Shown piece after piece: positions 1-38,500 of a DNA stretch of 64,000 nt. The first letter of the stretch is position 1. Each line of letters begins with the position of its first letter. Origin of the DNA: Eledone cirrhosa (Eukaryota); the NCBI GenBank assembly GCA_964016885.1, contig OZ024742.1:169198001-169262000 (forward strand), written 5' to 3'. The notes under the pieces are model-generated. The model was not told the origin of the DNA. It ran no database searches and saw nothing but the letters and a program-made list of their open reading frames with translations. A program made the translations under genes and the position numbers.

Positions 1-1125
1 TGGTTGTCTGCAAACAGAGGCCTCTTATCAACATATATCCTCATTGACCCCTTAACCACAGAACAACTAAAATCCTATTCGTATAAATTTTTCAAACTGG
101 AACTCTTAGAATGTTTCCGAAAATCTCACCAATGGGTTAGCTATATTTTTGCTCCTCCCAGTTCTTTCACACGTGCTCAACGTCTCACATGTACCTTTGC
201 CCTATTGCTGGCACTGATGCTGAGCAATGTCATGTTCCATGGTATCCCATCAGATGACCCCAACAAACAGCTGGAGCTTGGTAAACTAAAAGTATCTGTC
301 ACATCTATAGTGATCTCCATTGAATCATCACTAATAATTATTCCGCTGGGGTTTCTCATCACCCAGATGTTTATACAGGTGAAAACAAAGTCAGAGGGCT
401 TTGTTTTTGTCCAAGAAGCTAACATGAAAACAGCGAAATTGAAAGGAAAAGTTAACGAAGAGCATGAGGTGAAGAAAGCAAAGAGTGTGTCAATCCGTGA
501 CAAAAAAGTCTATAATATGCTACAAAAAATAGTTAAAGATGACAGTAGCGGTAACGATCAAAACAATGAGAAAATAAAATATCAAAACAAAGACAAAGAA
601 GCAGGTAAGGATTCGAAGAATAATACGGATGAAAATAGTGACAATGATGATGAGAAGACTATGAAAGAAATGAAAACTCCGAAAGACCAGAAAAATGGGA
701 AAGAGAAGAAATATAAAAAGATTACACAAGTCCAGCTACCCAAAAGGTTGCTACCTTGGTGGTTTGTGTACATATCGTGGACCATCACACTGTTTTTCTG
801 CCTCATTTGCACTTATTTCATCATGCTTTATGGTTTCAGATATGGCTATAGTGTGAGCTTACATTGGAGTGTGACTTTCTTGATATCCTTGCTGCAGTCA
901 ATCTTCCTCGAGCAACCATTTGAGATCATTATCATGTCAATAACTGTTCAAATGAAGACAAGTTTCAGGGCAGAAATTTTCCACATGTCCATGGTTGATG
1001 AGAATGAGGACTTCCTCACATACATTCATGATAGGTGCTACTATGAAGAGAACCAAAGCGGTGTCATACATCTGCCTCCACTGGTGGACAACACAAGCAA
1101 GAAAGAGACAATGTCAAAGAAGTAG
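1..1125 (+). CDS. Polycystin-1/PKDREJ-like receptor, paralog A; 5'-partial (end of PLAT, TM2-TM5, short tail)
   Basis: Open frame from base 1. Motifs WLS.NRG, SH.W.S.IF.PP.SSFTRAQRLTC, LLPWWFVYISW and W...FL.SL.QSIFLEQP are typical of the PKD1-like PLAT-to-TM5 region. Collinear with the ORF at 12825-17354. AATAAA at 1187-1192. Confidence 0.85.
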   Translation, partial: WLSANRGLLSTYILIDPLTTEQLKSYSYKFFKLELLECFRKSHQWVSYIFAPPSSFTRAQRLTCTFALLLALMLSNVMFHGIPSDDPNKQLELGKLKVSVTSIVISIESSLIIIPLGFLITQMFIQVKTKSEGFVFVQEANMKTAKLKGKVNEEHEVKKAKSVSIRDKKVYNMLQKIVKDDSSGNDQNNEKIKYQNKDKEAGKDSKNNTDENSDNDDEKTMKEMKTPKDQKNGKEKKYKKITQVQLPKRLLPWWFVYISWTITLFFCLICTYFIMLYGFRYGYSVSLHWSVTFLISLLQSIFLEQPFEIIIMSITVQMKTSFRAEIFHMSMVDENEDFLTYIHDRCYYEENQSGVIHLPPLVDNTSKKETMSKK

Positions 1126-2135
1126 GACCTAGAAGCAAACTTAGCTTATAATCAGAAACCAAACTTCAAGACAGAGAAACAAACTAAATAAACATAGACT
1201 TTTGTGGGGTCAGTACCTCTGCTTGTGAACTGATCTGTTCCGCTGATGACCTGTCCAACCCTTACTAACAAGAAAAGTGGACATTAAACAATGATGATGA
1301 TGTATTTCATTTTTTTTTCAATAAACTATAAAGAAACTCTTCTCTTACCAACCTGTCAAGATTATTTGATCTCTAAATATGTAATTTCATAAACTTGGTA
1401 ACAACGTTTCTAAATCATTTATTGACAAAACAGTTAAACATTATTTTAGACAGACCAACATATATAGCAACATCGTTTCTGTCAGCTTTCACTAAATATA
1501 TATTTCAATTGGAAGTTAGATGGTGTTTGGTCCAGAACTTTTCAAAATGCGATCTGGTAAAATACATCACACCAAAAATAGTAGGAAACACCTCCAGAAA
1601 TCTGGTGGAATCATTAGCTAATACTGATAAATACATTTATAAATACATATATTTATTTTTTTATTTATTTAATCAATGTAAACATCGGTATAGAGTTAGT
1701 AGTAAGCCATGTCAGACTAGAGGTCGTGTCCAGTACCCCTTACAGTTAAAAAACAAAACTAAGAGAGAGAGACTGGACTGTGAGAGAAAAAAGGAAGACT
1801 ACGATTGACAAAAGAAGCATAAATAAAGTATAAATAACATATCGGCAAACCTCCTGCTTTCATGTATGTGTCTGTGTGTGTTTGCATGTAAATATATTAT
1901 ATATATAATTATATATATATATTTCGTTTCTGAATTTGTTTAGCAAGATTCTTTATCTGAAATCTTGTGTTGAAACCGATATTGTTATACTTTGGGAGGG
2001 TCATGTTGCCAATAAGAAACACACGCACCAGTTGCTTTCACTTCAATTTATTATAATAAATTTATAATAAATTTATAAATTTATAAATTTCTGGTTGGTT
2101 GGTTGGTTCCAAAACCAGATAGTTGTTTATATATT

Positions 2136-2178
2136 GTCATAGTTCTTTCGTCACACACTGTGACCTCTTCAGTGACTG
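2136..2178 (-). ncRNA. Minimal type I hammerhead ribozyme motif (left arm copy)
   Basis: Minus strand reads gtca-CTGAAGA-ggtcac agtgt gtgac-GAAA-gaac-TA-tgac. Confidence 0.65.
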
Positions 2179-3437
2179 GGGATTCCTTTCTTTGTTTCTG
2201 TGCCTCTCCTTTGTTCTGTCCTACGCCATTTTGTTTCTGTGTGTGTGTTGTGTGCTCAGTCTGCGCATGCGCCACATCCGGGTGTCTGTGTGTGTTTATG
2301 TTCATTTATTTATTTGTTTATTTACATGTTACTGGTTGGTTGTTTGTTCTATGTGTGTGTGTGTTTTCATTTTGTCCTTAATTGTAAGTTGTGATGTTGC
2401 TGTTCCACTCATATTTTCTATTTAATTTTGGTTGTAATTCTTTTATGTTTATTGCTTCTGTGATTTGTCTAAACATTGCGTCTTTTCTGTGTGTAGATTC
2501 TATTTTTATTTCTATGTTCTCTAATTTACCCTTCTGTTCTATTTTAGCATGTTGGTAGAGTACAGATGATTCTTTACTATCTTGAAGGTCTCGCCAGTGT
2601 TCATTTATCCGTTCCCCTACACTACGAGCTGCCTCACCTATGTACACTATATTTTTGTCTCTACATTGTCCTTCAGTATATCTTATGCTATACACTACAT
2701 TTCTAGTTTTACAGTTAATATGGGGGCTTATTTTACAGGTTATACATTTCTTATCTATACATGAGGGTCTTTGAAAAGGGTATGTCTTGCTAATAAGTGT
2801 TTTTACGGAGGTACCTGGTACTTATTAGCAAGACATACCCTTTTCAAAGACCCTCATGTATAGATAAGAAATGTATAACCTGTAAAATAAGCCCCCATAT
2901 TAACTGTAAAACTAAAAATGTAGTGTATAGCATAAGATGTACTGAAGGACAATGTAGAGACAAAAATATAGTGTACATAGGTGAGACAGCTCGTAGTGTA
3001 AGGGAACGGATAAATGAACACTGGCGAGACCTTCAAGATAGTAAAGAATCATCTGTATTCTACCAACATGCTAAAATAGAACAGAAGGGTAAATTAGAGA
3101 ACATAGAAATAAAAATAGAATCTACACACAGAAAAGACGCAATGTTTAGACAAATCACAGAGGCAATAAACATAAAAGAATTACAACCAAAATTAAATAG
3201 AAAATATGAGTGGAACAGCAACATCACAACTTACAATTAAGGACAAAATGAAAACACACACACATAGAACAAACAACCATACAGTAACATGTAAATAAAC
3301 AAATAAATAAATGAACATAAACACACACAGACACCCGGATGTGGCGCATGCGCAGACTGAACACACAACACACACACAGAAACAAAATGGCGTAGGACAG
3401 AACAAAGGAGAGGCACAGAAACAAAGAAAGGAATCCC

Positions 3438-3482
3438 CAGTCACTGAAGAGGTCACAGAGTATGTGACGAAAGAACTATGAC
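3438..3482 (+). ncRNA. Minimal type I hammerhead ribozyme motif (right arm copy)
   Basis: gtca-CTGAAGA-ggtcac agagtat gtgac-GAAA-gaac-TA-tgac, downstream of the GIY-YIG ORF, where PLE hammerheads normally lie. Confidence 0.65.
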
Positions 3483-3623
3483 AATATATAAACAACTATC
3501 TGGTTGTGGAACCAACCAACCAACCAGAAATTTATAAATTTATAATAAATTTATTATAATAAATTGAAGTGAAAGCAACTGGTGCGTGTGTTTCTTATTG
3601 GCAACATGACCCTCCCAAAGTAT

Positions 3624-3675
<52 letters not shown>

Positions 3676-3689
3676 CTCACTCTTACAGT

Positions 3690-6600
3690 GAAATCCAAAA
3701 CTTCAGAACTGCCACTACCAACGTCAGCACAATGAAAGGAAGATCAAAAGAGATTGTAAAGATGCTAGAACAAAAGAAAGTTGATGTATGTTGTGTACAA
3801 GACACCAGATGTTAAGGAATGACAGCTAGATTCCTTGGGGGGGGGGGGGCAATGCTACATTTTCTGGGTGGAGTAGGTATTAAGTTACCAGAAAATGGGT
3901 TGATAAGGTAATTGCTGTAAATAGAGTGAACAACAGAATCATTAAACTTAGACTACTCCTAAATAGAATAACTGTAACAATTATATTTACATATGCACCT
4001 TAATCTGGACTGTGACAAATTAAAAAAACAGGTTTTTTACAAATCCCTAATGCACACAACTTTCCTAATGAATGAAGATGACTGTATAATCATTGCAGGT
4101 AACTTTAACAGGCATGTGGGGCAACATTGTGATGCCTTCTATGGAACTCACTGAGGTTTGGGGTTCAGCCTGAGAAATGAGGAAGGTTTCAGGCTCCTGG
4201 AATTCTGTGATATCAATGATCTATCTATCTGTAACACAAACTTAAAACAAACAGACAATTACTTGATCACCTATAGATCAGGTGAGCATGCCAGTCAGAT
4301 AGATTTTATCATCACCAGAAGATGAGATAGAGTATCGGTTATAAACACAAAGTCCCTACCTGGTGAAGAATGCACCTCTCAACATAACCTAATAGTTAGC
4401 AACCTTATAGTTAGGGCTAGATGAACTCAGAGACAAAGGGCAATCTGGAGAAGAAGGATATGGATATTAACAGAGCTCTCAGCCTGTAACAAATTTATAG
4501 GTATGTTGCTTGATGCTTTTGAGAGTAAAGAAAAACAAATAGAGATATACAATATAGAGGAGCAGTGGGGTTCCTGAAAGATAATCTGCTGAAGACAACA
4601 AATGAAATGTGTGGCTGGAGTAGGTCTCTAGGAGAAGGGGAGTGACTTTGTAGTGGAATAGTAGAGTGGATGAGACAAAGCCAAGAAACAGGCATGAAAG
4701 AATGGCAGAATGGAGAAAGTAGAGAACACTACCAGGATACTAGGAGAGAAGTTAGGCAACAAGTATACTTTGCAAGGAGGAGAACAGAAAAGGAAAAAAT
4801 TAAGCATGTTATGCAACATGAGGACCAAAGGCATGAGATGTTCAGGATTGCAAGGCAATGTTTCAGGGAAAATTGTAATGTTGTTGTGGAGAAGTGTGTC
4901 TAAGATGATAATGATGTATTTGCCCTCTATGACACAGAAAAGAAAGTAGAATGGAAGTGTCAGTATGAAAGACTACTAAATAGAAATGTACGCAAGGAAG
5001 ATAGTCTGCCCCAATTGGGCCCAGTAGATGGGCCAGCTGTGCAAATCTGCAGCAGTGAAGTAAGAAAGGCAATTAAGGATATGAAACAGACAAAACAGCT
5101 GGACCATCAGGGATAGTTGCCAAGATGCTGAAAGTATGTGAGCATGGTGGGTTACAACTTAACCATCCATATTGCAAACCAAGTAATACAAAATGGTGTC
5201 ATACCCAATGACTGTTGTTGCAGCATCATTGTCAACTGCTTCAAGGGCAGAGGAGATGCACTAGATAAAGAAAAGCAGAGGCATCAAGTTGATGGACCAG
5301 GTTATGAAAGTAACAAAAAGAATTATAGCGCAGCTGATTAGAGACCGAGTTAACCTAGATGAGATGGATTTGTGCAAGGTAAAAATACCACTGGTGCCCT
5401 CTTCCTTGTGAGGCAACTGCTAGAGAAGTACCTAGCTAAAAGTAAGCCTCCCTAAATGGAATTTGTTGACTTAGAGAAAGCTTTTGAAAGAGTCCTCAAT
5501 TCCATAGTCTGGTGAGCTCTTAGAAAATTACGAGTAGATGAGTGGCCTGTGAAGGCAGTACAAGCCATTATAGAGGAGCAGTTAGCAAGGTTAAAAGTAA
5601 TAATGACTATACTGAAGAATTAAACATGCTGGTAGGAATCCATCAGGACTCAGTTCATAACCTTCTCTTTATTATCGTCCTGCAGTCTATATCAAAAAAG
5701 TTTAAGCCTGGCTGCCCATGGAACCTCCTGTATGTAGATTATCTAACACTCATAGCTGAATCTATGGAATAATTAAAGAAAAAATTCCAAACCCGGAAAC
5801 AAGGCCTAGAATCAAAAGATCTTAAAGTCAACTTGGCAAAGACTAAAGTCCTAATATCTCTAAAGGAAAACAGGAGCCAGATTCCCTCAGGTAAATGGCC
5901 ATGCTTAGTGTGCAGGAAAAGAGTAGGTAGAAATTCCATCCTATGTCCCAAATGCAAACTAGGGTTACACAAGAGATATAGTGGGATCTCAGGTAGGCTA
6001 GCAAAGAACAGGTTTTGTATGTGATCAATGCACATGAGCAGTAAGTAGTTAAAGCTCACATGATACTAGCTTCTTTAAATACCCTAAGGGCTCTATAGAA
6101 GTAGTTGATAGTTTCTGTTACCTAGGGGACCAAATTAGCAGTAGAGGGGGGGGGGGGGTCCTGAAAGTATAGTAGACAGAGTGAGAATGGGATGGAAAAT
6201 GTTCAGGGAGCTATTACTGCTGCTAGTTACAAAAGATTTTTCCCTCAAAATGAAAGGCAGACTGCATGAAGCATGTAAGAAAGACCTGGATAATATGTGC
6301 AGAGGACCTATGAAGGTTAAAAAGAAATGAAGCTTGCATGTTCCGATGGATGTGTAATAGTAGTGTGCATGAAAGAGAAAACATCAGTGAACTGAGAGAG
6401 AAACTAGGCATAAGAGGAGTCATATGCAGTGTGCAGGAGAGGAGATTGTGGAGGTATGGATATATGATGCATATGGAGGATGATAGCTGTATAAAAAGGA
6501 ACAGGGCTCTCAAAAATTGACGGAAACTATGGAAATAGAAGACCTAGGAAAGCTTGGGAACAAGTGATAAAAACTGACCTTGCCAAATTACACTTCACAA

Positions 6601-7270
6601 AGGAGATTGAGATCTCTAGCGCCATGCAGTACTGCATAAGACCTACCTTCCTACATGCACACAATGAAATAAAACAAGCATGTAGGAGACATACTAGTCT
6701 ACAGTAATCTACTCTTCACCCCTCCAAATTCACTTTTCCCAGTCTTAATACCCAGCCCTCACCAGCTAAATATCCCATGCACCTCAATGATGTCGAACTT
6801 GCTAACTTGTTCCCCCAAATCCTGATACACCTTACCTTCCCAACCCACTCATACAAGCATGAAAGCTGAACATGCTCTACATCTGATCTCTCACAATAAC
6901 GTTGCCACAACAAAATGCACTAAGTCCACCCTGTATGTTGATCTGGTGTCACATCAACAAGAGCACCCAATCCATCCTATAAGGTGATCGTGCTGGTGAC
7001 ACAAGAAAAATTGCCCAGTCCACCCAGTAGCGTGGTCAGGCGGGTGACACAACAAAAACCCCAGTTCTTTCAGTGTCATGATAAAAAGCACCCAGTTCAC
7101 ACTATAATGCGGTTGGCATTAGAAGGGCATCCAGCTGTAGAAACCAAGCCAAAATACAGATCCGTATAAGCATGACATGATCTTTGGACCTGACTTGTCT
7201 CATAACATGACAACCTGTCTAACCCATGTAAGCGTGAAAAAATAGGCGTTACCTGATGATGATGATGATA
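3690..7270 (+). mobile_element. Degraded near-full-length RTE-clade LINE (APE endonuclease, RT, 3' UTR, (GAT)n tail)
   Basis: Fragments VDVCCVQDTR, IIVNCFKGRGDALD, GCPWNLLYVDYL, SGKWPCLVCRK and RRLWRYGY, with many stops and frameshifts. Confidence 0.9.
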
Positions 7271-7409
7271 TATATATATCATCATCATCATCATATATAT
7301 ATATCAACTATAAAAATAGTGAATGTGTGTATATTTATTTATTTACATATTTGTCCATCACTCACTAAAGGGAGATGACTGAGGAAGGGAGGGGTGGTGA
7401 AAAATAATA

Positions 7410-7620
7410 GAAAACAGTTCTAGCGAAATAGCTACATACATTGGCTATTGTTGGATGCCATATTTTCTAGCATAGTTACGTCCCTTTACATTCTGAGTTC
7501 AAATCCCGCCGAGGTTAACTTTGCCTTTCATCCATACGGGGTCGATAAAATAAAGTACCAGTAATGCACTGGAATAATTGCTGGCCTTGTGCCTAAAGTA
7601 GAAACAATTATTATGTTTCA
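7410..7620 (+). mobile_element. tRNA-derived SINE, family 1
   Basis: B-box-like gagttcaaatccc followed by gccgaggttaactttgcctttcatcc...gtcgataaaataaagtaccag; the same sequence recurs many times in the window. Confidence 0.8.
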
Positions 7621-8639
7621 TCCTTACGGGGTCAATAAAATAAGCACCAGTAATGTACTGGGTAATTGCTGAAAAGTAGAAACAATTATTATGTTAGTCT
7701 TTGTGTGAGTGTATGTGTGTGGGTATAAGTGTGTTTGTGTGAATATATTTATACTTGTGTGCGTGCATGTGTGATTGTATGTATGTGAGTATATGTGTGT
7801 TTGTGTGTTTATAGCACTTGTGTGAGTGTATGTGTGTTTATATTTATACTTGTGTGAGTGTAATACACTCAATATATATATTGAGCACATGAGAACAAAC
7901 TTGAATTAATGGCTAGAGTGAAGCAAAACCCTTAACGATGCTAAAAAAACAAGTGTGGATGGATACCATATATCATCGATCAGGTAGTGGAGAATCAACT
8001 CCGAAAACCATCCGGTTCATATATTACCAAAACACATCACTAAAATGTATACAGGTAATTGCTGTCTGATGAAATCCTATCTATATGGTTTACAATTATG
8101 TGTAACAGCTATTATGTAATTTTAAAAATGTGAAGTATAACCTAATTGCCTTCTACTTCATTATACATATATGTAGGTTATTTAGTAATTTTGTTGATAA
8201 TTGGAGGTGGCACCAGTATGAGTACTCAATGATATTAATTAAACATGGTGATTCTCTAGAAAGTTTGTATTTCTCGTGGTATCAGTGCCTTGTATGTTTG
8301 TAATCAGCAGAGTGTATATATTATGTATGAGATAATGCAATTTCACTTTAAAATGTTTTTTCTTCCATATTCAATATTACATGTGAGATGAACCAATCAT
8401 ATGTTCGAGGTCTTTTTCAATGTGATAGATCTGACTCCAGTATTAGTTTATTCATCACACATGTAGATTCAAACATTGATTAAGACTTTAAGTCAATCAT
8501 CTATGAAACATATGTAACATGTAATATGGAATAAAATATTTTAAAGTGAAACTTTGTTATCTAATACAATATATATACTGAACAATGTTCCCTGCAGATC
8601 CATACCCCAATTCCAGGTTGTTGTGCAACTGACTGTTGG

Positions 8640-9910
8640 AATATGCACTTATTTATGTAGTTGCTGAGATGCTGAAATCTAAGAAAGTAGGAGTTGAACT
8701 AGTCACCTGCATAACCAATCAAGTAATACAAGATGGCGTTATACTATATTCATCAATTGTTACAAGGGAAAAGGTGATGCATGAAGGCACGTGGTCAAGT
8801 GGTATATGTATGGAGTTACAATCATAATGTCGTGGCTCAATGCCTGAACTGGATTGTGTGTTGTGTTCTTGAACAAAACACTTCATTTCACAATGCTCCA
8901 GTATACTCAGCTGAAAATGACTACCAGCAGTAGCTGGGGTTTTAACGCTGTGATGGACTGGTGTCCTGTCCAGGATAGAGTCTTGAACTTTCAGTCACTT
9001 AACGCCACGGAAACCAGGATAAACACTGGCCTGGTGAGCCTCAGGGCTCGAAACAAGCTTTAGAAAAGGTGATGCACTAGGAAGAAGCAATGACAGGGAC
9101 TTATAAGAGCAGTGCAAGCCATGTACGATAAGTTGTCAGTAAGGTGAGAGTAGTAATGAGTTTAGTGAGGAATTCAAAATACAAGTTTTCATCAGTGCTC
9201 TATGCTTAGCCCACTCCTAATTATCATAGTTCTGCAGGCCATAACTGGGGACTTCAAGACAAGCTGTCTATGGGAATTTCTGTACACCAACGACCTTGTT
9301 CTTATTATCCAAATCAGTAGCAGATCAAGTGAATAAATTACACCTTTGGAAAAACTTAAGAGAATAGGAAAGAATACAGGGCCCTGTTACCTATAGGGAA
9401 GTGGACTTGCTGAATATGTAGAAAAGGAGTAGGTAGAAACTCTAAATGATGCACAGCACAATGTAAATCTTAGGTACACAGAAGGCCTGGTAATCAAATT
9501 AGTTGGGGAGGGGTGGCAATGAGAACTTAGTAGCGAGAAAAAGAACAAGATGGAAAAGGTTCAGGGAGCCTCTACCACTGTTGACAATATGTTTCTCTCT
9601 AGAAACAAAAGGTTGGCTGTATGATGCATGATTTTGCATGGTAGTAAAACATTGGCAATGAATCCAGAGAATATACAAAGTATGAAGACAAATGAAGCAA
9701 GCATGCTTTGATAGATTTGCAATGCTATTGTGTGTGAATGTCAGAGCATGAATGAGCTGAGAGAAAACCTGGGTATAATTAAAATCAGATGTAATGTGCA
9801 GTAGAGGAGATTGCACTTATATGGATATGTGGTGCATGTGAGTGATGATTGGTAGATGAACAAGTACCAATGGATCCGAGTAGAAGAAAGCTACAGTAGA
9901 GGAATGATAA
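8640..9910 (+). mobile_element. Old RTE LINE fragment interrupted by a family 2 tRNA-SINE (about 8785-9062)
   Basis: RT-like remnants resembling 5100-6500. The sequence aaaaggtgatgca occurs on both sides of the SINE. Confidence 0.65.
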
Positions 9911-10589
9911 TGATACATCATCATTGTCATCATCATCATCACATAACATACACTCTCCCTCCTAGCAAGATTTGAATGGGTCTTCCTAAACAAAGTCAGT
10001 ACTCAAGAAGAACTGCTGACCTCTCAGACAAGCCAGAATCCAACATCTCACATACATTAACACACGCAACCAAGTGCTCAGATATGCTGGGGGTGGGTGG
10101 GTCCTATGTCTTGATTACATACATATCTATGCTCTATCGAGGGAATTTTATCATGGTGATAACCCTTCCTATCGCCAACCACTTCACAGTGTACTGGGTG
10201 TGTTTATCATGTAGATCACACTACAGAGGTTGTGCTGTTAACACAACTAATGAGTACTCTTGACCATTTTTACCATGGTTTCTACAGTAGGATGCCTGAC
10301 CTATGGCCAATCATGTTACAGGATCTATCGGCTGCAATTTTCATGGCACCAACACTAGAAAAGTTGCCAGTCATTAATACAATTCCGTTAGGGAAGGGAG
10401 TACTATAAGTATGATGTCATGGATGTATGAGAGGTGTTGTGGGATTTTATTGTTTCATGAGTAAGTGGAGGATGACCTCTAATTCTATGATGTTAGCAGC
10501 TATTAAGGAGTAAAACATGAATGTGGTGGGCACATTCAGTGGTGGTGAGAAATAGCTACTAAGGAGCATGGATGGGGTGAATGTGTACA

Positions 10590-11300
10590 GTAATGGCTAG
10601 GATCACTATTAAGCCATAATATGCTGCTAGAAAGGTCTTGTTGAGTTCAATATATCAGCAGCTTTAGTGGTCCCTGTCATCTCTGTTGTGTGGTTCATTC
10701 ACCTTCTTAGAATTTTGCCTTTAACTCTCCTACAGATTTATCTACGTAGAGTTGATCATTCCAAGGTGTGATACTTTTAAACTCCTCTGTTATGGCCTGA
10801 AGGAGAATAACATAGAAATGGACTGAGAACTGAGCCCTAGTTGACTGCTACATGAACTTCAAATTCATCACTGTATTCATTGCAAATATTGCCCTTGCTG
10901 GTTGCACTTCTATACCTGGTTTGCACAGCCCTTGTGACCGATTCATCTACAATTAGCTTCCAAAGTACCCAATAGATTACAGAGCAGGAGACTGTTGAAT
11001 GCTTTCTCTAGATCCCCAAATTTTAAGTACAGAGAATTGCACTTAGCTAAGTACTTCATGTGCATGCCTCACCTGAGATAGATCATCAGTAGTGCCCCTA
11101 GTTGGCATAAAGCCTAAGAGTATAACCTTAATTGCTTTGTCTATCAAACTGCTGTCAACTTTCGCAGCTGTTCCCTCAGTTGGGTCTATATGTAGTATAT
11201 CCTTACTCTTCCATTTACTCAGCAGTTGTTCATAGTAAGTCTTTCATGTCTCTTTCTTTTCATAATCAGACAGAGGAAGTACTTTACTACCACTTCAGAT
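10590..11300 (-). mobile_element. Highly decayed RTE LINE fragment
   Basis: Reverse-strand similarity to the RT region of other RTE copies (gaatgctttctctagatc, agctaagtacttc). Confidence 0.5.
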
Positions 11301-11314
11301 ACTTTCCCCAAGAG

Positions 11315-11910
11315 GTTTTTATCTGCTGCCTGTTAGATTCAGAATAACATCCAGAAAGTTTACAGCAGTTACATTTGTATCAAGAGTAATTTTTAGGCAG
11401 AAGGACATAAAGGTTTGTATTATGTCTTTCCTTAGTCTCTCATGTGCATGAACATTGATGTTTTCTGAGATAGCTAGAGCAGCATCTCTGTACAGGCCAC
11501 AGTTGGAAATAGAACCCCATAGGTTGTCTAACAGGTATAACCCAAACAAAATGCACACATCTGCCACTTTCAATGAGCCCATGCTGACATAACAGGAGCT
11601 GCTTAGCTCAACAATTTTTAGCCATTTAGTGTATTTGCTGAGGAATAGGGCTCTCCTTGCATGCATTATTATCTTATGGTCCTTGTCATCTATGGAATGG
11701 AATCAATCAACAAAGTGTAGGGTCCTATCTAATAGGTCCCCGGAGATCAACGTGTAAAAATCTACAATGACCTATTGAAGAAACTTAGTGTTGTACTTGT
11801 TATTGATAATATTAAAATGTTTGATAATCTTCCTACTATTAGCCCACTGTGTCAAGTTACTAGTCTTACATTGTTAACATGATTTTGCTAAATATGCCAA
11901 TTTCAGATGT
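11315..11910 (-). mobile_element. Penelope-like reverse transcriptase fragment
   Basis: ORF 11319-11666 has VSMGS...ADVC.LFGLYLL...GLYRDA...VNFLDV.LNL, a decayed PLE RT motif set (MGS / GLYRDD / FLD). Confidence 0.7.
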
Positions 11911-12824
11911 AACAGAGTTTTCATGTTGTGGCTGTTGTTATTGTGGTTTAGCTCTGGTTCAGGTGTTGATTTCTTAAAAATATAACTAACTATGGATGTA
12001 CATAGGACCTATAAGAGAGGGATTCAGCAGGTGCACATGAATATCTAATGTGTACTGCCAGCTCCCCTCAAAATTCCTCTCAACACCATTGAATTTCAAG
12101 AGAATTCTCCCTCACTCCTCATGTGTGGCATTCTGGTCCACTAAACACTAAATTATAATTAAAATGAATTACTCCAGTAATGAAACAAAATGGTAAAAAA
12201 TGTCAACTTCTACATAACAATAAACTATGACATCACACTCAAATCAGACTAGTCCATTTATGGAACAACAAACACTAATAGAATACTTTTTCTTTATTTT
12301 TGTAGCTATACTCAATTTTATTTATTTATGGATATAGTTTTTTTTTTTTTTTGACAATTAAATAGGTTTATTTACAATAGTTTATAACTTTTTTGTTCAC
12401 TTATTGTTTGTCTTCATAAATTGTTCGTGGATTTTTGTTTGTTTTGTTTTTTTAGTTTTTTATCTTAGCATCTGTTGTGTTCTATACCATCATCGCCATC
12501 ATGCTGAGATATTCTTTCTTTAAATTATTTTCCACCCTTTTAATACAAACCCATCAGATACTGCTCATACTAAAGGGATTATATTTAAATCAAAGCTTCC
12601 ATCAGAATCTCATTACATTGTCAACAATATCAAGAGATTTCAGTTAGTTAACATCAACATCATATTTATTCAAATATAAAGATACTGATATTTTACTAAA
12701 AACCTCCAAAATATTGATTATATTGAAAAATACTTGAAATATATAGGCAGTTTTCTCATTAGAAATATAGTCACGAAAGGATCAATAATACAAGAGCCTG
12801 TAAGTGTTGCTTGTTGCTTTCAAT

Positions 12825-15800
12825 ATGACTTTGTTATTGTTGTTGTTGTTGGTAGGTCAACAGATAACATACTGTAGTGCTGTCGGAGAAATACCTTATG
12901 ACAGTTTCAATATCAATGATACCATAGAAGTCAAAGCAGGTAACAGCACAATGAATATAGAGTTAAGTTGCTTGGATGAGGACTACATGAATCGTTTGAT
13001 CAATCAAGAATCCGTTGATTTGAAGAGTAGCATAGTCAAGCAAAAAGACTGCATCATCCAGGAATCAAAATATTTAACTGTCATGCCTATCAAATCTATA
13101 AAATTGATAATATTCTGTCTCCGAAATTGCCTGATGTTTAATGGAGAGACAGGCAGTGTTCAATATAGATTCAGCTGTCAGTTAACTCCCTATGAAGTCC
13201 AAAAAACTGACGACTCTTTCAAATGTAACTTTCGTGACAGAAGTGCACACTGTACCAAGAGTCAAAATACAAAGGGTCAGAGTGTAGTGATTGCTACAGC
13301 CACAGCCAATCAAATCCTCTTTCTACCATCAAACCTCCTTAAGGACGGAAATCCCAAACTAATTTCATTCCAACTGACTATGAACCTCAACAATGGTGAT
13401 GCAACAAAGCAGGTCAATGTGAACAAATATGTATACAACACACAAATTCAAGTTCTGCCATACATGTTTAGCAAACGCTGTAAAATAAATCCACAGTCAG
13501 GTTTTGCAAACTCAACTCTGTATAAGCTTTCTTGCAAAGATCTCTCTCTTTACAGTCAAAAAGGAAATTTTTTCTATAGTATATCTTACAAGGGTGCAAC
13601 ATCTTACATTAAAAAGAATGAAAAACTAGGGGAGACATTAGAGGCTGCTTTCAAACTTCCACCTATGCCAAAATATGAAGTCGATATTAAGTTATATGTG
13701 TACAGTGTTGAAGGAGGTAAGACTTGCCTAGAAACTATGTCATCGTTTAGGTGCTCAGTGGAGCCACTTGACAAAACATTAAGTGAAAAGATTGACAATG
13801 TGTCGTTGTCTCAGGATATTGATACTGCGATAAATTCTTTGCTGTTTCTCACCTATCGGGTTAACAACTATAGCATGATAATTAATGATGACACTCTTTC
13901 AAGAAAAGAGAAAGACAAAGTACTTAAAAGTTTAATCAACCTCCGTCTGAAGCTACTAAGAAAAGTGTATGGTTTACAAGTCAAGAGGGCACAAACATTA
14001 CCAAAGCTATCAACATTGTTGGATGAGATCACAAGGAATAAAATAGAATTCAATGCTACTGCGAAAATACTCTATAGCAAAATTTGTTCTATTTTCGCAA
14101 ACCAGCTCAGGAATAAAACCTCAAATTTGACAAAAGATGCATTTGACAATGAAACTCGCTACATTTTTATAGGAATTAGCCACATGCTTAGTAGCTATGA
14201 GGTGGAACCAAGGTTTAAAATGACCACTGCTGAAAAGAAGAAGAATATAAAAAAGTCAATAGAATCAGCGAATAAATTACTGTCCATCATTGATACCATA
14301 AATGTGGCTATTGGGGAAGAGGGTAAAGTGAAGCATACCAAGGAAATTCGGTCACCAAATTCTGTACTGATAGTGGCTAGACACAGCACATACATCAGTG
14401 ATACTTGCAACAATACTTTCATTTCCACTTTGATAATAAACAAGACAAAAATTCAAGCTATGCTCAGCTGTCAACATAAAAACACAGACAAGGATAGAAC
14501 TGTGTTGTTAAGCATGTGTTTAATTATCAATAATCCTTATGATCTGGCAGAATCACTGAAGCCAAATTACCCAATAGTCTTAGTCAAGGCCTACAAAAAC
14601 AACTCAAAGCCTACTGATATAGGTACAAAACTTATCAAAATATCTAATCCCAGGGTACCAGTGAATATAGAATGGAAAAAATTTAATCTAAAATTCGATT
14701 TTCGTCGAGAAGGAAATTTTCTTTATCCTGTTTATTCTAAAAATTTCTCTGTACCGATGGTGAAAGTAAAAAGATCTTACTCCAGCAACCATTACATATT
14801 TGTTAAGCTCGACAAGGGGCCCTTTCGACTTGATGTGATTCCACATGTGATTCGGAAGCTGTCATTCCAGCAGTTAGTCTCAGGAGACATCCCAAGGATA
14901 TCTAATAGCAAAGTATCAAGTGTGAACTACAAGAACTATACAGTGGTCGTACCAGTTGGCTCAATCAAGGAGAATATCTACTTTATCATGGTTCAACCTT
15001 TCAAGAATTACAGCATCGTTGATAGGGTAACTAGGGATCAGAATAACACCCAAAATGATAACAAAATGAACTTGGAACACATGGAAATATCAATGCAAGT
15101 CACAACAGTGGGTAAGACATGTCTGCACTGGAGTAAAGAACTCAGTGTTTGGAATGAGAAATCCTGTAAGCTATCCAACATTTCTGATGGGCTCAAACCA
15201 TCTATTACGTGTTCCTGTGAGAAACCCACCATGGTATCAGGCAGCTTCTTCATCCCACCCAATCTTGTACATCCGATCAATGACTCTTATCTTTTCACTG
15301 AGTTCTTCACAAATCCAATAATGTTTACAGTGTTACTATTTGCATGGGTGATCTACTTTGGACTGCTCCATCTTACAATGCGTCTCAACAAACACGACAT
15401 GGAGTGTGTGACTGTTCTCAGCAATGAATTGAGAGGCTATATCTACCTTATCAGTATCAAGACAAAATGGTGGCCAGGTGCAGGTACCAGCTCAAAGGTC
15501 TACCTGATGTTTATTGGAGTTAATATTTACTGCTCTGTGATCTATCTCCATAACTCACGCAAGCCATGCTTCCAGTCAGGTGACAAGAACTGGTTCCTCT
15601 TGACCACCGAAAGTGGAATTGGCACTATAAAAAAGATTCTGATCTGGCACGACAATTCAGGTCCAAGTCCAGACTGGCTACTTGATTACATAACAGTACA
15701 GGATTTACAAACCAAACAGATATGGTTTTTCATATTTTCTAACTGGTTATCACTAAACAGAGGTCTCTTCTTGACACATGCCATCCTTGAACCTTTAAGC

Positions 15801-16538
15801 GTGGAACAGCAAAAATCCTACACATTCAAACTTTTCCAACTGGAAGTCTTTGAATGTTTCCGAGAATCTCACCAATGGTTTAGCTACATTTTCGCCCCTC
15901 CCAGTTCTTTCACACGTGCACAGCGTCTGACATGTACCTTTGCTCTGTTGTTGGCACTAATGCTGGGCAATATCATGTTCCATGGTATCCCATCAGATGA
16001 CCCTAGTAAACAACTGGATATCGGTCTATTGAAAATATCCATCACATCTATAATGATTGGCTTGGAGACATCATTAGTAATTATACCAATAGGATTCATT
16101 ATCACCCAGTTGTTCATACAGGTGAAACCAAGCACACACACATTTCTTATCCTTGAAGACAACAATAAGAACAAGAAAAGGGAAAATATTGAAAAAGAAA
16201 AAGAGAAGCAATTGAAGGAGACAAAAGAGGGGAGAGAGAAGAAAAATGAAAAGGGTTTAGAGGAGATAAGAGAGTGTGGAGATGAGGAAAATAAGATGAA
16301 TAGATGTTCGTATTCTTTCTGGACTCACATTCGTCCAAGTCTTGATCAAAATACCTACAATATGTTACAGAAATTTAACCAAGATGACAATAATATCAAA
16401 AGTGAAATGGGTAGTAAAAACAGCCGAAAGCTGGAGCATTCCGATTTTGACACACATAAATATAGAGGAGGACATCGAGAGAGCAGAGCAGAATTGGAAG
16501 AGGACAATAAAAACAAGGATAATGATAATGATGTTCAA

Positions 16539-16571
<33 letters not shown>

Positions 16572-16835
16572 CATGATGATGATCATGATGATGATGATCA
16601 TGATGATGATGATCATGATAATAATGAAGTTCATGATAAAAATAATAATGTGAATGATAATCATGTTCATGATGATGATGATGATGATGTTCATGATAAT
16701 AATGAAGTTCATGATAAAAATAATAATGTGAATGATAATGATGTTCATGATGATGATGTTCATGATAAAAATAATAATGTGAATGATAATGATGATGTTC
16801 ATGATAATGATAGTGATCATGATAATGATGATGAC

Positions 16836-16885
<50 letters not shown>

Positions 16886-17354
16886 GAATGTAAAAGATGA
16901 GAAGGAAGATATGGAGGAGAAAAATAGGAAAGAGAAGAAAGGTAAAATTCAGATAAGTCTCAAGTTCCCCCATGAGCTGTTACCCTGGTGGTTTTTGTAT
17001 ATTTCGTGGACCATTGCACTGACATTCTGTCTCATTTGCACCTATTTCATCATACTTTATGGCTTCAAGTACGGCTACAATGTGAGCTTACATTGGACTG
17101 TGTCTTTCTTTACATCACTGATTCAGTCAATTTTCCTCGAGCAGCCATTCGAGATCATCGTTAGAACAGTGTTGTCAATTGTAATGAGAGCGGGTCCCAG
17201 TATGGAAATCTTGCATAAATCTGTGATTGATGAAGAGAAGAACTTCCTCTGGTCCATCCATGCCATATGTAACTATGAAGAGAACTGTAATTTTGTCATA
17301 TATCTGCCTGTACTGAGTGAAGGAGATTTGGATGATGCCAAAGACAAACAATAG
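12825..17354 (+). CDS. Polycystin-1/PKDREJ-like receptor, paralog B: signal peptide, REJ/GAIN-like ectodomain, GPS, TM1, PLAT/LH2, TM2-3, acidic loop, TM4-5; no TOP or channel domain
   Basis: Single uninterrupted 4.5-kb ORF. First ATG at 12825 gives MTLLLLLLLVGQQITYCSA (signal-like). Motifs: C.INPQSG.A..T.Y.LSC (REJ end), CLHW...W...C...CSC (GPS, about 15120-15262), Y.ISIKT...GAGTSSKV...IWHDNSG.SPDW.L..I.V.DL (PLAT), FTRAQRLTC, LPWWF. AATAAA at 17416-17421. The start could alternatively come from an upstream exon. Confidence 0.88.
16519..16885 (+). repeat. Coding (GAT/AAT/CAT)n low-complexity expansion encoding a D/N/H-rich tract
   Basis: Poly-Asp runs and three copies of VHDKNNNVNDN inside the polycystin ORF. 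Confidence 0.95.
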
Positions 17355-17964
17355 TCTGAAGCAGAAACTGAAGAAAACCTTGAGGAACTAAACTTTGAGA
17401 CAGAGGAACAAACTTAATAAATATAGACTTTTGTGTTGATGTTGCTGTTGATACTGCCTTTGTTATTGTTATTAAGTATGGCTTTCATAGTTTTTGTTGT
17501 TAATTTCAATTCAGTCCTCATCCAGCAAACCATGATCATCCTGTATTTGATTCAAATTTAGTGTATCTAGAAAATTATCTAAAGGGTCCTTTTTTGTAGT
17601 TGTTTAGCCCCAGGTCAGCAGTGATCCCCCAGATTTATATTTATATGTTATTGTCAATATCACCCTCACATATCTCTGTATGTCCTTCAGTGTTCCCATT
17701 TTCCAAAGCAAACAAATGTACTTGACAAAATGCATCTCTTGGTTGTAGTTATAATACACAATGTATACCCACATAACAGGTTAGGTAGATGACAGTGATT
17801 GGGGAAATTGAAACATTTACACATAACACAGGCATACATATGTATTGGTGGTGGGGCCAGCTTGATTCCAAATATTAGTTATTTCTAGAATCAGATAATA
17901 TTGTTTCTATGATGCCTATGATGGACATGGCTGGGCAGTCACAGTCTGCAATGAAATCATAATC

Positions 17965-22152: not shown

Positions 22153-22334
22153 TATATATGATGTGAATGTTAATATTTAAATTTGTGCGTATAGCCATAT
22201 TTCAGGATTTGGAAAATCCATTGAGATAAGTTTAAATTTATTATTATTTGTATTTCCAAACTTTTCGGTTTGCATGAGATTTGTATATATATATATATAT
22301 GTGACATATATATATATATATATATATGAGACGT

Positions 22335-23677
22335 AGCTTGGTTTTGTGCCTCGGAAAAGTACAACAGATGCCCTCTTCATAGTGAGGCAACTACAAGAGA
22401 GGTTTTTAGAAAAGAATAAGCCACTATACTTAGCTTTTGTTGACCTAGAGAAGGCCTTTGATAGGGTACCCTGATCTGTCATCTGGTGGTCCCTAAGGAA
22501 ACTAGGGGTAGAGGAATGGCTTGTGAGGACAGTGCAAGCTATGTACAGGGTGCTGTCAGTAAAGTGAGAATAGGAATGGAGTTTAGTGAGGAATTCCAGA
22601 TACAAGTAGGTGTACATCAAGGTTCTGTCTTCAGCCCACTCTTGTTCATTAAAGTCCTCCAAGCCATAACAGAGGAGTTTAAGACTGGCTGCCCATGGGA
22701 ACTTCTTTATGCTGATGATCTGGTTCTTATAGCAGAATCAGTAGAGGAGCTAGAGAATAAATTCTGGCTATGGCAACAGCAGTTGGAATCAAGAGGCCTG
22801 AGAGTGAACATAGCTAAAACAAAGGCATTGATAAGTAGAAGAGAGGACAATACTCTGATTCCATCAGGCAAATGGCCATGTTCGATATGTAGGAAAGGTA
22901 CTGGCATAAATTCCATAAAATGTACGCAATGCAGATCAAGAAATGTAGACAGGTAGGGAAAACTACGTATGCAGTAGATGTACAGGGAAAGTTGGCAGTA
23001 GTAATCGATGTGATAGACTCATTTTTCCAATGCAGGTGGGTTTTATAGAAGTGGTTGATAGCTTCCGATACCTAGGTGATCAGATTAGCATGGGGGGGGG
23101 GGGTTCCGAGGCCATAGTATCTAGAATAAGGACGGGTTGGAAGAGGTTTAGGGAGCTACTCCCTCTGTTGACAAAGAAGGGTTTCTCCCTGCGTAAAAAA
23201 GGTCGGTTATATGATGTCTGTGTGAGATGCGCGATGCTGCATGGTAGTGAGACATGGGCAGCAACTGCAGAAGATATTCAACGGCTGGAGAGAAATGAAG
23301 CAAGTATGCTCCGTTGGATGTGCAATGTCAATGTGCATGAACGACCAAGCATAGACGAGTTGAGAAAGAAACTGGGTATAAGAGGGATAAGTTGTGGTGT
23401 GCAGGAGAGAAGGCTGAGATGGTATGGACATGTGATGTGCATTGAGGATGACCGCTGGGTAAAGAAGTGCCAAGAAATCCCAGTGGAGGGAAGACGCAGT
23501 AGAGGTAGACCACGAAAAACATGGGTGGAGGTGGTGAGAGCAGACCGCAGATCACTGAAACATACCGAGGAGGTGACGAAGGACCGTGACAAGTGGAGAA
23601 ATGCTGTGCTGAATAGGACCCGTCCAACCCTTGCAAGCAGGGAAAAGCGGACGTAAAATGATGATGATGATGATGAT
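22335..23677 (+). mobile_element. 5'-truncated, relatively young RTE LINE (RT C-terminal half)
   Basis: AFVDLEKAFDRVP, GVHQGSVFSPLLF, ELLYADDL, FRYLGD, RLRWYGHV; (GAT)n tail. Confidence 0.93.
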
Positions 23678-25030: not shown

Positions 25031-25486
25031 ATGATTTTTCAGCCCATTATAAGTGTCAAGCAAAAAGGCAAAGAGTAGATATGGACTAGAGCTTAAAATA
25101 TAATGACACATATTGTACATTATAATAACAATCAAATATTACATATATATCTTTAAGCCTGTAGCTAATAAGCAAGGTGATATTTGGATTCAGGACATGA
25201 AAATACATAAGAATTAAATAATCTCATTTAAGAAACACACAACTTTTCAAAAATTGTTTCTACTTTAGGCACAGGGCCAGGCCAGTAATTTGAAGGGAAG
25301 GGGAACATTGATTAAATCGACCCCAATATATTACTGGTAGAAACAATAACAACAACAAATAAACAGTAGAAAACAATAACAACAACAAATAAACATTTTG
25401 TACATATTTTGGGTCTTTGTTATTTTTGTTTGTTTTGTTTTTTTCCTTTTTTTCTTCCAATGTAAACAAAATAATTGTATACTAAC

Positions 25487-25636
25487 TTGAGGGTGAAAAC
25501 AATCGTAAGTTCTCGTTTTGTTTTTTCTTGAAACCGTTTCATCAGAATGGAGATTAACTCAGTCTTAAAAACAGATTCCAACAAACTTTCATATTGATTT
25601 TGAACAAAAATCACAAACATATCATCTTGTAGTGGA
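25487..25636 (-). CDS. MYO1E: Myosin IE/F-like exon 8 of 8 in window (TH1)
   Basis: PLQDDMFVIFVQNQYESLLESVFKTELISILMKRFQEKTKRELTIVF; AG/GT bounded, 150 nt, in phase with the previous exon. Confidence 0.92.
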
Positions 25637-25799
25637 CTGAAAAAGAAGTAAATTTATATTGTAGACATCTACATAATGATACAAGTTGTTAACATGATAC
25701 CAGTCTATAATCTTCATTGAAGAAGCAGAAAATTTATGGTCTTTAGAACTCAGGACAAAATACCTTGCACTATACCTTCAGTCTTTTTTGTTATTCTTT

Positions 25800-35565: not shown

Positions 35566-38500
35566 CTACACAATAAATCCTATCCTACCATACACTGCTA
35601 CTACTACTACTACACTATACATCCTACCATACACTGCTACTACTACTACACTATACATCCTACCATACACTGCTAGTACTACTACACTATACATCCTACC
35701 ATACACTGCTACTACCACCACAACTACTACACTACACATCCTACCATACACTGCTACTACTACCACAACTACTACACTACACATCCTACCATACACTGCT
35801 ACTACTACAACAACTACTACAACTACTACACTATACAACCAACCATACACTGCTACTACCACCACAACTACTACAACTACTACACTACACATCCTACCAT
35901 ACACTGCTACTACTACCACAACTACTACACTACACATCCTACCATACACTGCTACTACCACCACAACTACTACAACTACTACACTATACATCCTACCATA
36001 CACTGCTACTACTACCACAACTACTACAACTACTACACTATACATCCTACCATACACTGCTACTACCACAACAACTACTACAACTACTACACTATACAAC
36101 CTCCCATACACTGCTACTACCACCACAACTACCACAACTACTACACTATACATCCTACCATACACTGCTACTACCACCACCACAACTACTACACTATACA
36201 TCCTACCATACACTGCTACTACTACCACAACTACTACAACTACTACACTATACATCCTACCATACACTGCTACTACTACCACAACTACTACAACTACTAC
36301 ACTATACATCCTACCATACACTGCTACTACTACCACAACTACTACTACTACTACACTATACATCCTACCATACACTGCTACTACTACCACAACTACTACA
36401 CTACACATCCTACCATACACTGCTACTACCACCACAACTACTACAACTACTACACTATACATCCTACCATACACTGCTACTACCACCACAACTACCACAA
36501 CTACTACACTATACATCCTACCATACACTGCTACTACCACCACCACAACTACTACACTATACATCCTACCATACACTGCTACTACTACCACAACTACTAC
36601 AACTACTACACTATACATCCTACCATACACTGCTACTACTACTACAACTACTACACTATACATCCTACCATACACTGCTACTACTACCACAACTACTACT
36701 ACTACTACACTATACATCCTACCATACACTGCTACTACCACCACAACTACTACAACTACTACACTATACATCCTACCATACACTGCTACTACCACCACAA
36801 CTACTACAACTACTACACTATACATCCTACCATACACTGCTACTACCACCACAACTACTACACTATACATCCTACCATACACTGCTGCTACCACAACAAC
36901 TACTACAACTACTACACTACACATCCTACCATACACTGCTACTACTACCACAACTACTACAACTACTACACTATACATCCTACCATACACTGCTACTACT
37001 ACCACAACTACTACTACTACTACACTATACATCCTACCATACACTGCTACTACCACCACAACTACGACAACTACTACACTATACATCCTACCATACACTG
37101 CTACTACCACCACAACTACTACAACTACTACACTATACATCCTACCATACACTGCTACTACCACCACAACTACTACAACTACTACACTATACATCCTACC
37201 ATACACTGCTACTACCACCACAACTACTACACTATACATCCTACCATACACTGCTACTACCACCACAACTACTACAACTACTACACTATACATCCTACCA
37301 TACACTGCTACTACTACCACAACTACTACAACTACTACACTACACATCCTACCATACACTGCTACTACCACCACAACTACTACACTATACATCCTACCAT
37401 GCACTGCAACTACCACCACAACTACTACACTATACATCCTACCATGCACTGCAACTACCACCACAACTACTACACTATACATCCTACCATACACTGCTAC
37501 TACCACCACAACTACTACAACTACTACACCATACATCCTACCATACACTGCTACTACTACCACAACTACTACATCTACTACACTATACATCCTACCATAC
37601 ACTGCTACTACCACCACAACTACTACAACTACTACACTATACATCCTACCATACACTGCTACTACCACCACAACTACTACAACTACTACACCATACATCC
37701 TACCATACACTGCTACTACTACCACAACTACTACAACTACTACACTATACATCCTACCATACACTGCTACTACTACCACAACTACTACAACTACTACACT
37801 ATACATCCTACCATACACTGCTACTACCACCACAACTACTACAACTACTACACTATACATCCTACCATACACTGCTACTACCACCACAACTACTACAACT
37901 ACTACACTATACATCCTACCATACACTGCTACTACTACCACAACTACCACAGCTACTACACTATACATCCTACCATACACTGCTACTACTACCACAACTA
38001 CTACAACTACTACACTATTCATCCTACCATACACTGCTACTACTACCACAACTACCACAACTACTACACTATACATCCTACCATACACTGCTACTACTAC
38101 CACAACTACTACAACTACTACACTATACATCCTACCATACACTGCTACTACTACCACAACTACTACAACTACTACACTATACATCCTACCATACACTGCT
38201 ACTACTACTACTACACTATACATCCTACCATACACTGCCACTACCACCACAACTACTACAACTACTACACTATACATCCTACCATACACTGCTACTACCA
38301 CCACAACTACTACAACTACTACACTATACATCCTACCATACACTGCTACTACCACCACAATCTACTACAGCTACTACACTATACATCCTACCATACACTG
38401 CTACTACTACCACAACTACTACACTATACATCCTACCATACACTGCTACTACTACCACAACTACTACACTATACATCCTACCATACACTGCTACTACTAC

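Follow-up and report, generated by a model that had tools for sequence, protein, structure and literature searches.

A pair of channel-less polycystin-1-like genes in the octopod Eledone cirrhosa

The role of transmembrane helices (TM) 6 to 11 of polycystin-1 (PC1) has been explained by structures and electrophysiology; that of TM1-5 with the PLAT domain is much less clear. A stretch of 64,000 nucleotides from Eledone cirrhosa (the window, to which all positions refer) carries two polycystin-1 (PKD1)-like genes that stop after TM5, which raises the question of whether such a receptor half is complete in this form and what it may do without a pore.

Gene structure and domain order

Copy B is an uninterrupted single-exon frame of 1509 aa on the + strand (12825..17354; ATG at 12825, TAG at 17352-17354). 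The frame of copy A (+ strand, 1348 aa, also a single exon) begins 2922 bases before position 1 (L011:5079-9125), and its 3' end with the end of the PLAT domain, TM2-5, the tail and the TAG occupies positions 1..1125. An earlier, sequence-only reading had described two intronless paralogs with open frames, and this description holds. Both copies are nested antisense in one 35.6-kb intron of the myosin-IE gene, which is bounded by a TH1 exon at 25474..25641 (- strand) and by an exon that lies outside the window, approximately 10,100 bases ahead of it. A third, frameshifted copy (copy C) is located 123 Mb away; with two open copies and one broken one, the lineage expansion proposed earlier was overstated. 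The nested antisense setting and the frameshifted copy are new here. The stop codon of copy A is spanned by DNA contigs of runs X1-X3, in which all letters agree; these runs represent one sample, possibly the assembly's own, serve as a DNA check only, and their contig coverage does not extend to the 5' frameshift of copy C. Both open copies stop after TM5, as had been claimed; the equivalence of the two stop codons is uncertain, however, as the gapped alignment places the TAGs approximately 10 nt apart. The conserved 3' block was confirmed: 54 nt including an AATAAA are identical at 46 of 54 positions between copies A and B (counted by eye) and are also present in copy C. The AATAAA motifs, which are predicted polyadenylation signals, are located at 1187..1192 (copy A) and 17416..17421 (copy B), both on the + strand and in either case 64 nt from the first base of the respective TAG; the motif is frequent by itself, with 83 occurrences in the 64 kb.

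Both genes encode, in this order, a signal peptide, a putative partial REJ region, a GAIN domain, TM1, PLAT and TM2-5, followed by the stop. In copy B (all features on the + strand), the ectodomain (aa 1-815, 12825..15269) consists of the signal peptide, identified by hydropathy, a partial REJ-like region, based on REJ clusters, and a GAIN-like domain with a degenerate GPS, based on matches to the GAIN domain of BAI3 and on the GPS columns. It is followed by TM1 (aa 832-850, 15318..15374; hydropathy and AlphaFold2 model), the PLAT/LH2 domain (aa 874-976, 15444..15752; Pfam, E 4e-14), TM2 and TM3 (aa 1037-1094, 15933..16106; hydropathy, profile and model), and TM4 and TM5 (aa ~1386-1460, 16980..17204; hydropathy, alignment and model). 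A GAT-rich in-frame microsatellite, which is found only in copy B (16518..16885), adds an Asp/His/Asn-rich insert to the TM3-TM4 loop. The tail of around 50 aa (17205..17354) contains the clade-wide motif C-x-[YF]-E ... [FV]-I-x-x-P and is the counterpart of the TM5-to-TM6 linker of full-length relatives.

In Pfam searches of copies A and B, PLAT (PF01477; E 4e-14 and 2e-13) was the only match, and neither Polycystin_dom nor PKD_channel was found. The PLAT domain directly follows TM1, as in the PKD1-like family, and a profile comparison with human PC1 aligned TM1-PLAT-TM3 with an E value of 7e-35 and TM4-5 weakly. The hydropathy scan called four of the five helices and the signal peptide in both copies, and TM5 only in the relatives P0005 and P0006; all five helices are visible in an AlphaFold2 model of copy A residues 541-1348 (mean pLDDT 76, pTM 0.71), which was built from a 64-row alignment, an earlier 9-row fold (mean pLDDT 44) having left the membrane part unusable. 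Thus, the five-helix, receptor-only architecture is borne out, and neither the full set of 11 TMs nor the TOP domain and TRP-like channel half of PKD1-like proteins is present. An adhesion GPCR, which combines GAIN with seven TMs, was ruled out by the five TMs with PLAT and the alignment to PC1. The top two Foldseek matches of the region before TM1 are the GAIN domain of BAI3 (E 4e-6 and 2e-5; low-confidence model, mean pLDDT 44), and the sequence alignment to GPS-bearing relatives also supports a GAIN domain. Whereas the expected PLAT match and absence of a channel domain were found, the expected GPS match was absent in both copies because the motif is degenerate: its His-Leu-Thr/Ser triad is replaced in copies A, B and C and in both Octopus proteins, is intact in P0004 and P0005, and copy A has additionally lost two GPS cysteines. 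Because of this loss, the octopod copies are predicted to remain uncleaved. No REJ domain was found by Pfam in copies A and B; however, 30 of 30 ESM Atlas matches of copy A residues 20-330 carry the REJ family set (best 0.94). The profile alignment starts at the REJ end of Haliotis P0025, and the sequences suggest that REJ is partial at most.

Descent and age of the truncated form

In the phylogenetic tree, the sampling of which excludes PKDREJ, the channel-less cephalopod-type proteins form one clade of seven rows with a support of 100/100. This clade is nested in a larger group (98/98) that also contains full-length molluscan PKD1L2-like proteins; this nesting places the genes within the PKD1-like family by descent. 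None of the four full-length PKD1-like genes of the genome falls in the larger group. The same end point and tail are found in P0002 (O. bimaculoides), P0003 (Octopus vulgaris) and the pair P0004/P0005 (31% identical); the accessions for O. vulgaris and O. bimaculoides are CAI9743065.1 and A0A0L8GRK9. An ectodomain-only search with P0004 matched P0004 and P0005 alone and revealed no further members. Close relatives are therefore not all full-length. The truncation precedes the A-B duplication, as the sequence-only reading had proposed, and is older than claimed, being common to both Octopus species as well as to the much more remote pair.

The coding introns of the ancestral gene have been lost: single open frames stand against intron-split homologous regions in the four full-length paralogs of the genome, which were used for this comparison in place of the direct parent. 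No parent gene within the clade was found in the genome search or the tree. We infer that a molluscan PKD1L2-like gene gave rise to the genes through a processed (retro-type) copy, which lost its 3' half before the lineages split, and that the full-length parent has apparently been lost. The copies have 0.9-3 kb of upstream DNA in common, which would fit a later duplication at the DNA level. The homology between copies B and C was considered as a mark of mRNA ends, but it reaches approximately 0.9 kb upstream, which rules this out. Between copies A and B, upstream and 5' blocks (9673..12960 in copy B, + strand) are 94-99% identical compared to ~78% in the coding part, which suggests patchy gene conversion.

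Constraint, channel halves and possible function

Could the stop be an artefact, or could later exons of a spliced full-length gene have been missed? The full-length paralogs possess a conserved intron just after TM5, and gene models that end there are common, with 14 scattered channel-less rows among the homologues. However, the frame of the copies continues for around 50 codons beyond this intron site into a tail that is conserved at 31% overall identity, the stop of copy A is confirmed by DNA contigs, and no channel exons follow downstream: no TOP or channel sequence was found on chromosome C3, and none in the approximately 130 kb that surround the copies (best E 0.73). This explanation is therefore highly improbable. 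In another proposal, the receptor half would join up again with a cognate TOP-and-channel half made from a separate locus. This would agree with the position of the cut, where TM1-5 naturally give way to TM6-11, and with a PKD1L3 channel half that works by itself, according to the accessible part of PMC8357825. The genome-wide search, in which all 40 and all 12 candidates were scored, detected five TOP/channel loci; however, four of these each lie 3' of the N-terminal half that belongs with them, in one case across an intron of ~120 kb that was not read through, and the fifth (C14) is PKD2-like. A PLAT match on C17 is accompanied by neither TM2-5 nor channel matches within 40 kb. The 10-row molluscan channel clade (SH-aLRT 98, quick tree) includes none of the five channel halves. 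A separate channel half, as suggested by the sequence-only reading, is thus very unlikely.

The comparison of copies A and B yielded an omega of 0.34 for TM2-5 (p 3e-6 against 1), and values over the membrane part of 0.37 for B-C and 0.44 for A-C; judged from these sequences, purifying selection acts on the membrane core. The A-B values for the ectodomain (1.20, p 0.14), TM1 with PLAT (0.78, p 0.37) and the tail (0.96) do not differ from 1 and would also be compatible with relaxed constraint. A site model favoured M2a over M1a (LR 32; 11-13% of sites with omega ~6); this test used three sequences, one of them frameshifted and with gene conversion present, and our own implementation, and is suggestive of a fast-evolving ectodomain under positive selection. 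Decay, in which the copies of a once-working family are under relaxed constraint in this species and on course to be lost, a fate also proposed for fish pkd1l3, would be in line with the frameshift in copy C, the ectodomain and tail omegas near 1, the lost GPS motif and the repeat expansion in copy B. It is an unlikely explanation, however, in view of the constraint on TM2-5, the conserved 3' block, intact relatives at 31-52% identity, and the absence of any stop in both frames, for each of which around 25 stops are expected under neutrality; retention of the truncated form, as claimed earlier, is upheld. Alternatively, the five-helix protein could be an accessory subunit that attaches laterally to PKD2, another TRP channel or a full-length PKD1-like protein; it would contribute an ectodomain for ligand binding but would not line the pore. 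The genome contains potential partners (the PKD2-like locus and four full-length PKD1-like genes), the strongest constraint acts on the membrane helices, and an association with TRP channels is described for PKDREJ and SpREJ3 (PMC1934368). These two are full-length proteins, however, and the known assembly uses TM6-11, which alone make a channel with PKD2L1 (accessible part of PMC8357825) and which are missing here; an accessory role is rather unlikely.

As the channel-less form is kept in related species, we favour, with better than even confidence, the explanation that the receptor half (ectodomain, GAIN, TM1, PLAT and TM2-5) works alone as a channel-independent recognition protein of the cell surface. 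Its basis is what was observed: the architecture, the missing channel half, an old truncation, a membrane core under selection, and intronless genes nested in a host intron; the broken copy C, the GPS cysteines lost in copy A and the long repeat insert in copy B count against it. The fast-evolving REJ/GAIN ectodomain would bind a partner that itself changes fast, and the conserved TM1-5/PLAT module would anchor and sort the protein and pass binding on to a cytosolic or membrane partner. A 1:3 pore with PKD2 should not form, because this pore uses TM6-11. The signalling model for PC1 passes through the TOP domain and the C-tail, according to the accessible part of PMC9171645; the modelled stalk-TOP-pore-loop-C-tail route should not operate here because these parts are absent. 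For a recognition protein of this kind, the best guess for its site, which falls somewhat short of an even chance, would be the sperm or gamete surface, by analogy with the intronless, testis-specific PKDREJ and the one-TM SpREJ1; a role in sensory cells would rank next. PKDREJ is known for its fast evolution.

Comparison with known systems

The class had been suggested to be undescribed. A channel-less cephalopod PKD1-like gene was indeed not found described in the literature covered, which consists of titles and the beginnings of abstracts with few subscription journals, and neither Octopus accession appears in the supplementary table of one cephalopod TRP survey; however, channel-less PKD1 members as such are already known from sea urchins (PMC1934368) and fish (PMC5318412). 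England et al. (2017) described ray-finned fish pkd1l3 genes without the channel domain as "partial pkd1l3" and read them as genes being lost (PMC5318412). Five-TM proteins of fish and amphibians (Alosa, Albula, Pleuronectes, Crenichthys, Erpetoichthys, Rhinoderma, Pleurodeles) possess GPS, PLAT and TM1-5, lack the channel and terminate 15-31 aa after the TM4-5 profile in all seven rows. They belong to a 9-row vertebrate clade beside PKD1L3 and differ from the cephalopod proteins in their independent origin, intact GPS and different tail; from their position in the tree, we infer that the fish rows are the published pkd1l3 loci. P0028 (Pelobates, 2401 aa) was considered as a full-length member of this clade; its two GPS and two PLAT domains, however, make it probable that two genes have been fused in one model. 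A tentative wider reading, which we hold to be somewhat doubtful, is that the TM1-5/PLAT half is an autonomous receptor module. It would have been freed from the channel on at least two occasions (among cephalopods and among bony vertebrates), each time with the same break point, and would have persisted over hundreds of millions of years; the cephalopod protein would then be a receptor for gamete or cell recognition under positive selection, and the partial pkd1l3 genes of fish would be working rather than dying. Natural TM1-5/PLAT-only proteins under selection, which apparently evolved twice, offer clean constructs for pore-free function, and cephalopod biology gains a fast-evolving surface protein of a kind that surveys based on channel domains would miss.

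The premise that all sea urchin REJ proteins have 11 TMs does not hold: SpREJ1, 8 and 9 have one predicted TM, SpREJ2 two and SpREJ7 six (PMC1934368). These proteins, among them the sperm receptor for egg jelly SpREJ1, are likewise PKD1-family members without the channel half; they are encoded by 20-52 exons and are set apart from the genes here by their published description. Mammalian PKDREJ is an intronless PKD1-family gene as well (PMC1934368), but it has 11 TMs and the channel domain. The sister group in the tree, the molluscan PKD1L2-like proteins (Haliotis XP_046574496, Gigantopelta, Ylistrum, Mytilus, Mya), has the same order REJ-GAIN-TM1-PLAT-TM2-5 and provides the best full-length match (507 bits). 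In contrast to these proteins, which keep a Pfam GPS match and run on for ~540-580 aa through TOP and channel, the genes of E. cirrhosa are single-exon, end after TM5 and keep REJ in part at most.

Two copies inside a myosin intron and a third elsewhere

The sequence-only reading described two diverged paralogs with open frames, and both are present on the forward strand of the window, which belongs to an assembly of 3.0 Gb. Copy B is a single open frame of 1509 aa, running from the ATG at 12825 to the TAG at 17354, and copy A is a frame of 1348 aa, which starts 2922 bases left of the window, has its 3' end at 1-1125 and is 56% identical to copy B. An AATAAA is located in a conserved block 64 nt past each TAG; the stops, which had been called equivalent, share this spacing but are unpaired in the gapped alignment. 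Searching the genome with the region from GPS to TM3, with all 32 candidates scored, revealed three strong loci. Besides A and B, these include a single further one, copy C, on the minus strand of the same contig (L014:4937-9394, at C3:46.07 Mb), and this copy is frameshifted: one shift lies close to the 5' end and two are found in the TM3-TM4 loop, and its final frame runs through the position where the other copies stop, as far as the conserved AATAAA. DNA contigs from one sample, possibly the assembly's own, show no indel at the two loop sites of copy C and match the frame and stop of copy A. The three copies look lineage-specific, since they group together against the Octopus pair in the tree. 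The upstream blocks and first 45 codons of A and B are 94-99% identical, which exceeds the identity of the coding parts (approximately 78%) and points to gene conversion between them.

A myosin-IE gene on the minus strand, missed by the sequence-only reading, spans the whole window. Its motor, TH1, proline-rich and SH3 exons, matching the Octopus bimaculoides protein with 67-97% identity, extend over 25474-64000 and on into the further stretches L017, L012 and L013. Adjacent exons at 25641-25474 and some 10,100 bases to the left of position 1 bracket A and B, and both copies are therefore antisense inside one 35.6-kb intron. A long inverted repeat at 1979-3631 (arms of around 825 bp, 96% identical) contains a GIY-YIG frame at 2797-3237 and is presumably a Penelope-like element; a near-identical element adjoins copy C. 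Disrupted reverse transcriptase elements of the LINE type, which carry a PHD-like finger, are located at 22180-23676, 51856-57138 and L013:1880-5217. Satellite arrays in a myosin intron (35598-40728 and 40900-44032), with a 54-bp unit in about 100 copies and a 21-bp AC-rich unit, yield long spurious open frames.

Architecture and selection

Of the expected arrangement of GPS and PLAT without PKD_channel, a Pfam search of the copies recovered PLAT as the sole domain and no channel domain, but also no GPS match. All three copies and both Octopus proteins have other residues in place of the GPS triad, which is intact in the distant relatives P0004 and P0005; two GPS cysteines are gone from copy A. 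As a lead, the N-terminal part is similar to REJ-domain clusters (ESM Atlas score 0.94), and the BAI3 GAIN domain provided the best two structural matches of a first, low-confidence model. A second model (64-row alignment, pLDDT 76) has five membrane helices around the PLAT sandwich, predicted at about residues 830-860, 1032-1052, 1074-1099, 1229-1255 and 1257-1293 of copy A. This model matches lipoxygenase PLAT domains and also, with low overall TM-score, polycystin-1 chains; human polycystin-1 is matched by the sequence profile with an E-value of 7e-35. The stop lies around 50 residues past TM5, directly ahead of the helix preceding TM6 in full-length relatives, and falls on the TM1-5/TM6-11 boundary described for PKD1L3 in the available text of PMC8357825.

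Pairwise codon likelihood (own script), with the same pattern from NG86, gave an A-B omega of 0.34 for TM2-5 (p 3e-6), 0.78 for TM1 plus PLAT and 1.20 for the ectodomain (neither significant), and 0.96 for the tail. The B-C pair had an omega of 0.37 for the membrane part and 0.68 for the ectodomain; the A-C values were 0.44 and 0.90. Around 25 nonsense changes per copy are expected under neutrality; none is present. Fitted to A, B and C, a site model placed 11-13% of ectodomain codons at omega of about 6 (LR 32, two frequency models); with three sequences compared, a positively selected class is suggested but no more than that, and TM1-PLAT-TM3 gave no such class in these sequences (p about 0.1).

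Age of the truncation and the missing channel half

Among 1740 candidates, a GPS-TM3 search found 19 proteins, the top four of which have no channel domains: one each from O. bimaculoides (1283 aa) and O. vulgaris (1469 aa), and P0004 and P0005 (1333 and 1348 aa), which are 30-31% identical to copy B and, to judge by the tree described below, may come from a distant cephalopod lineage. All four end 14-23 residues past a common tail motif, which bears out the proposal that the truncation predates the duplication. When 1.84 billion representatives were searched with the profile, no clade member was added, and the next match was a full-length Haliotis protein. TM4-5 was matched in 131 of the 173 collected proteins, and 31 of these had no channel match: nine from this clade, eight from a vertebrate clade and 14 scattered ones with varied ends, some of which are partial models. 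In a tree of 60 selected rows, computed under LG+G4 without a mixture model and omitting multi-PLAT LOXHD-like matches, near-duplicates and many unnamed rows, seven truncated rows form one clade (100/100), nested in a 24-row group (98/98) of otherwise mostly full-length mollusc proteins. The genome's four full-length PKD1-like genes, represented by partial sequences, fall outside this group. In the sister clade, four gastropod and bivalve gene models (P0007, P0024, P0031 and P0060) likewise terminate past TM5, each carrying its own tail; these stops are either gene-model artefacts or further independent truncations.

It had also been proposed that the receptors pair with a separately encoded channel half. 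Genome searches with PKD_channel and Polycystin_dom revealed at least five loci, on contigs C4 (two), C10, C14 and C15, with no match on C3 among the loci listed. Four of the five lie downstream of their own PKD1-like N-terminal half, which contains introns, and the C14 locus looks PKD2-like. A quick tree was built from 41 channel halves; its 10-row molluscan clade, where the parent's channel half would be expected, contains none of these five loci, which speaks against the pairing. The best match of the channel profile to 3994 stop-to-stop frames in roughly 130 kb of DNA surrounding A, B and C had an E-value of 0.73. A lone PLAT-like match at L043:331-762 (C17:28.80 Mb) has no TM2-5 or channel match within 40 kb. 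The channel-less form is real, old and selected; it is of PKD1-like descent, but lacks the 11 TMs and channel of the family.

Proposed role and known channel-less relatives

The best reading is a recognition protein independent of any channel, in which a variable ectodomain would sit on a conserved five-helix/PLAT anchor. These proteins lack the half responsible for assembly with PKD2-type subunits (described in the available text of PMC8357825), and they have no TOP domain, pore loop or C-tail, which are parts of the tethered-agonist model of PC1 (likewise PMC9171645). A gamete role is suggested solely by analogy with SpREJ1 and PKDREJ, the latter being testis-specific and intronless according to the accessible part of PMC1934368.

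A literature search of partial coverage found no description of the cephalopod channel-less clade. A 2026 survey of cephalopod TRP channels has one TRPP per table row in the part examined, and both Octopus accessions are absent from its supplement table (PMC13402157). Fish and amphibian rows without a channel (P0009, P0010, P0075, P0088, P0091, P0094, P0135 and P0175) are PKD1L2/3-like, measure around 950-1120 aa (two are shorter) and end just past TM5. Seven named proteins of this kind end 15-31 residues past the TM4-5 profile and make their own clade beside PKD1L3, and the same cut at the end of TM5 thus appears to have arisen twice. The pkd1l3 genes of teleosts and gar have no channel domain and were interpreted as being lost in the available text of PMC5318412. 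In Pelobates, the fused model P0028 suggests that the fish/amphibian clade member lies beside a full-length paralog, and the clade may therefore represent an ancient paralog and not a pkd1l3 in decay. Channel-less relatives of the PKD1 family have thus already been published, and the copy number here is small. In sea urchin, the accessible part of PMC1934368 gives one predicted TM for SpREJ1, 8 and 9, two for SpREJ2 and six for SpREJ7; these published channel-less relatives have one, two or six TMs, whereas the copies described here have five.
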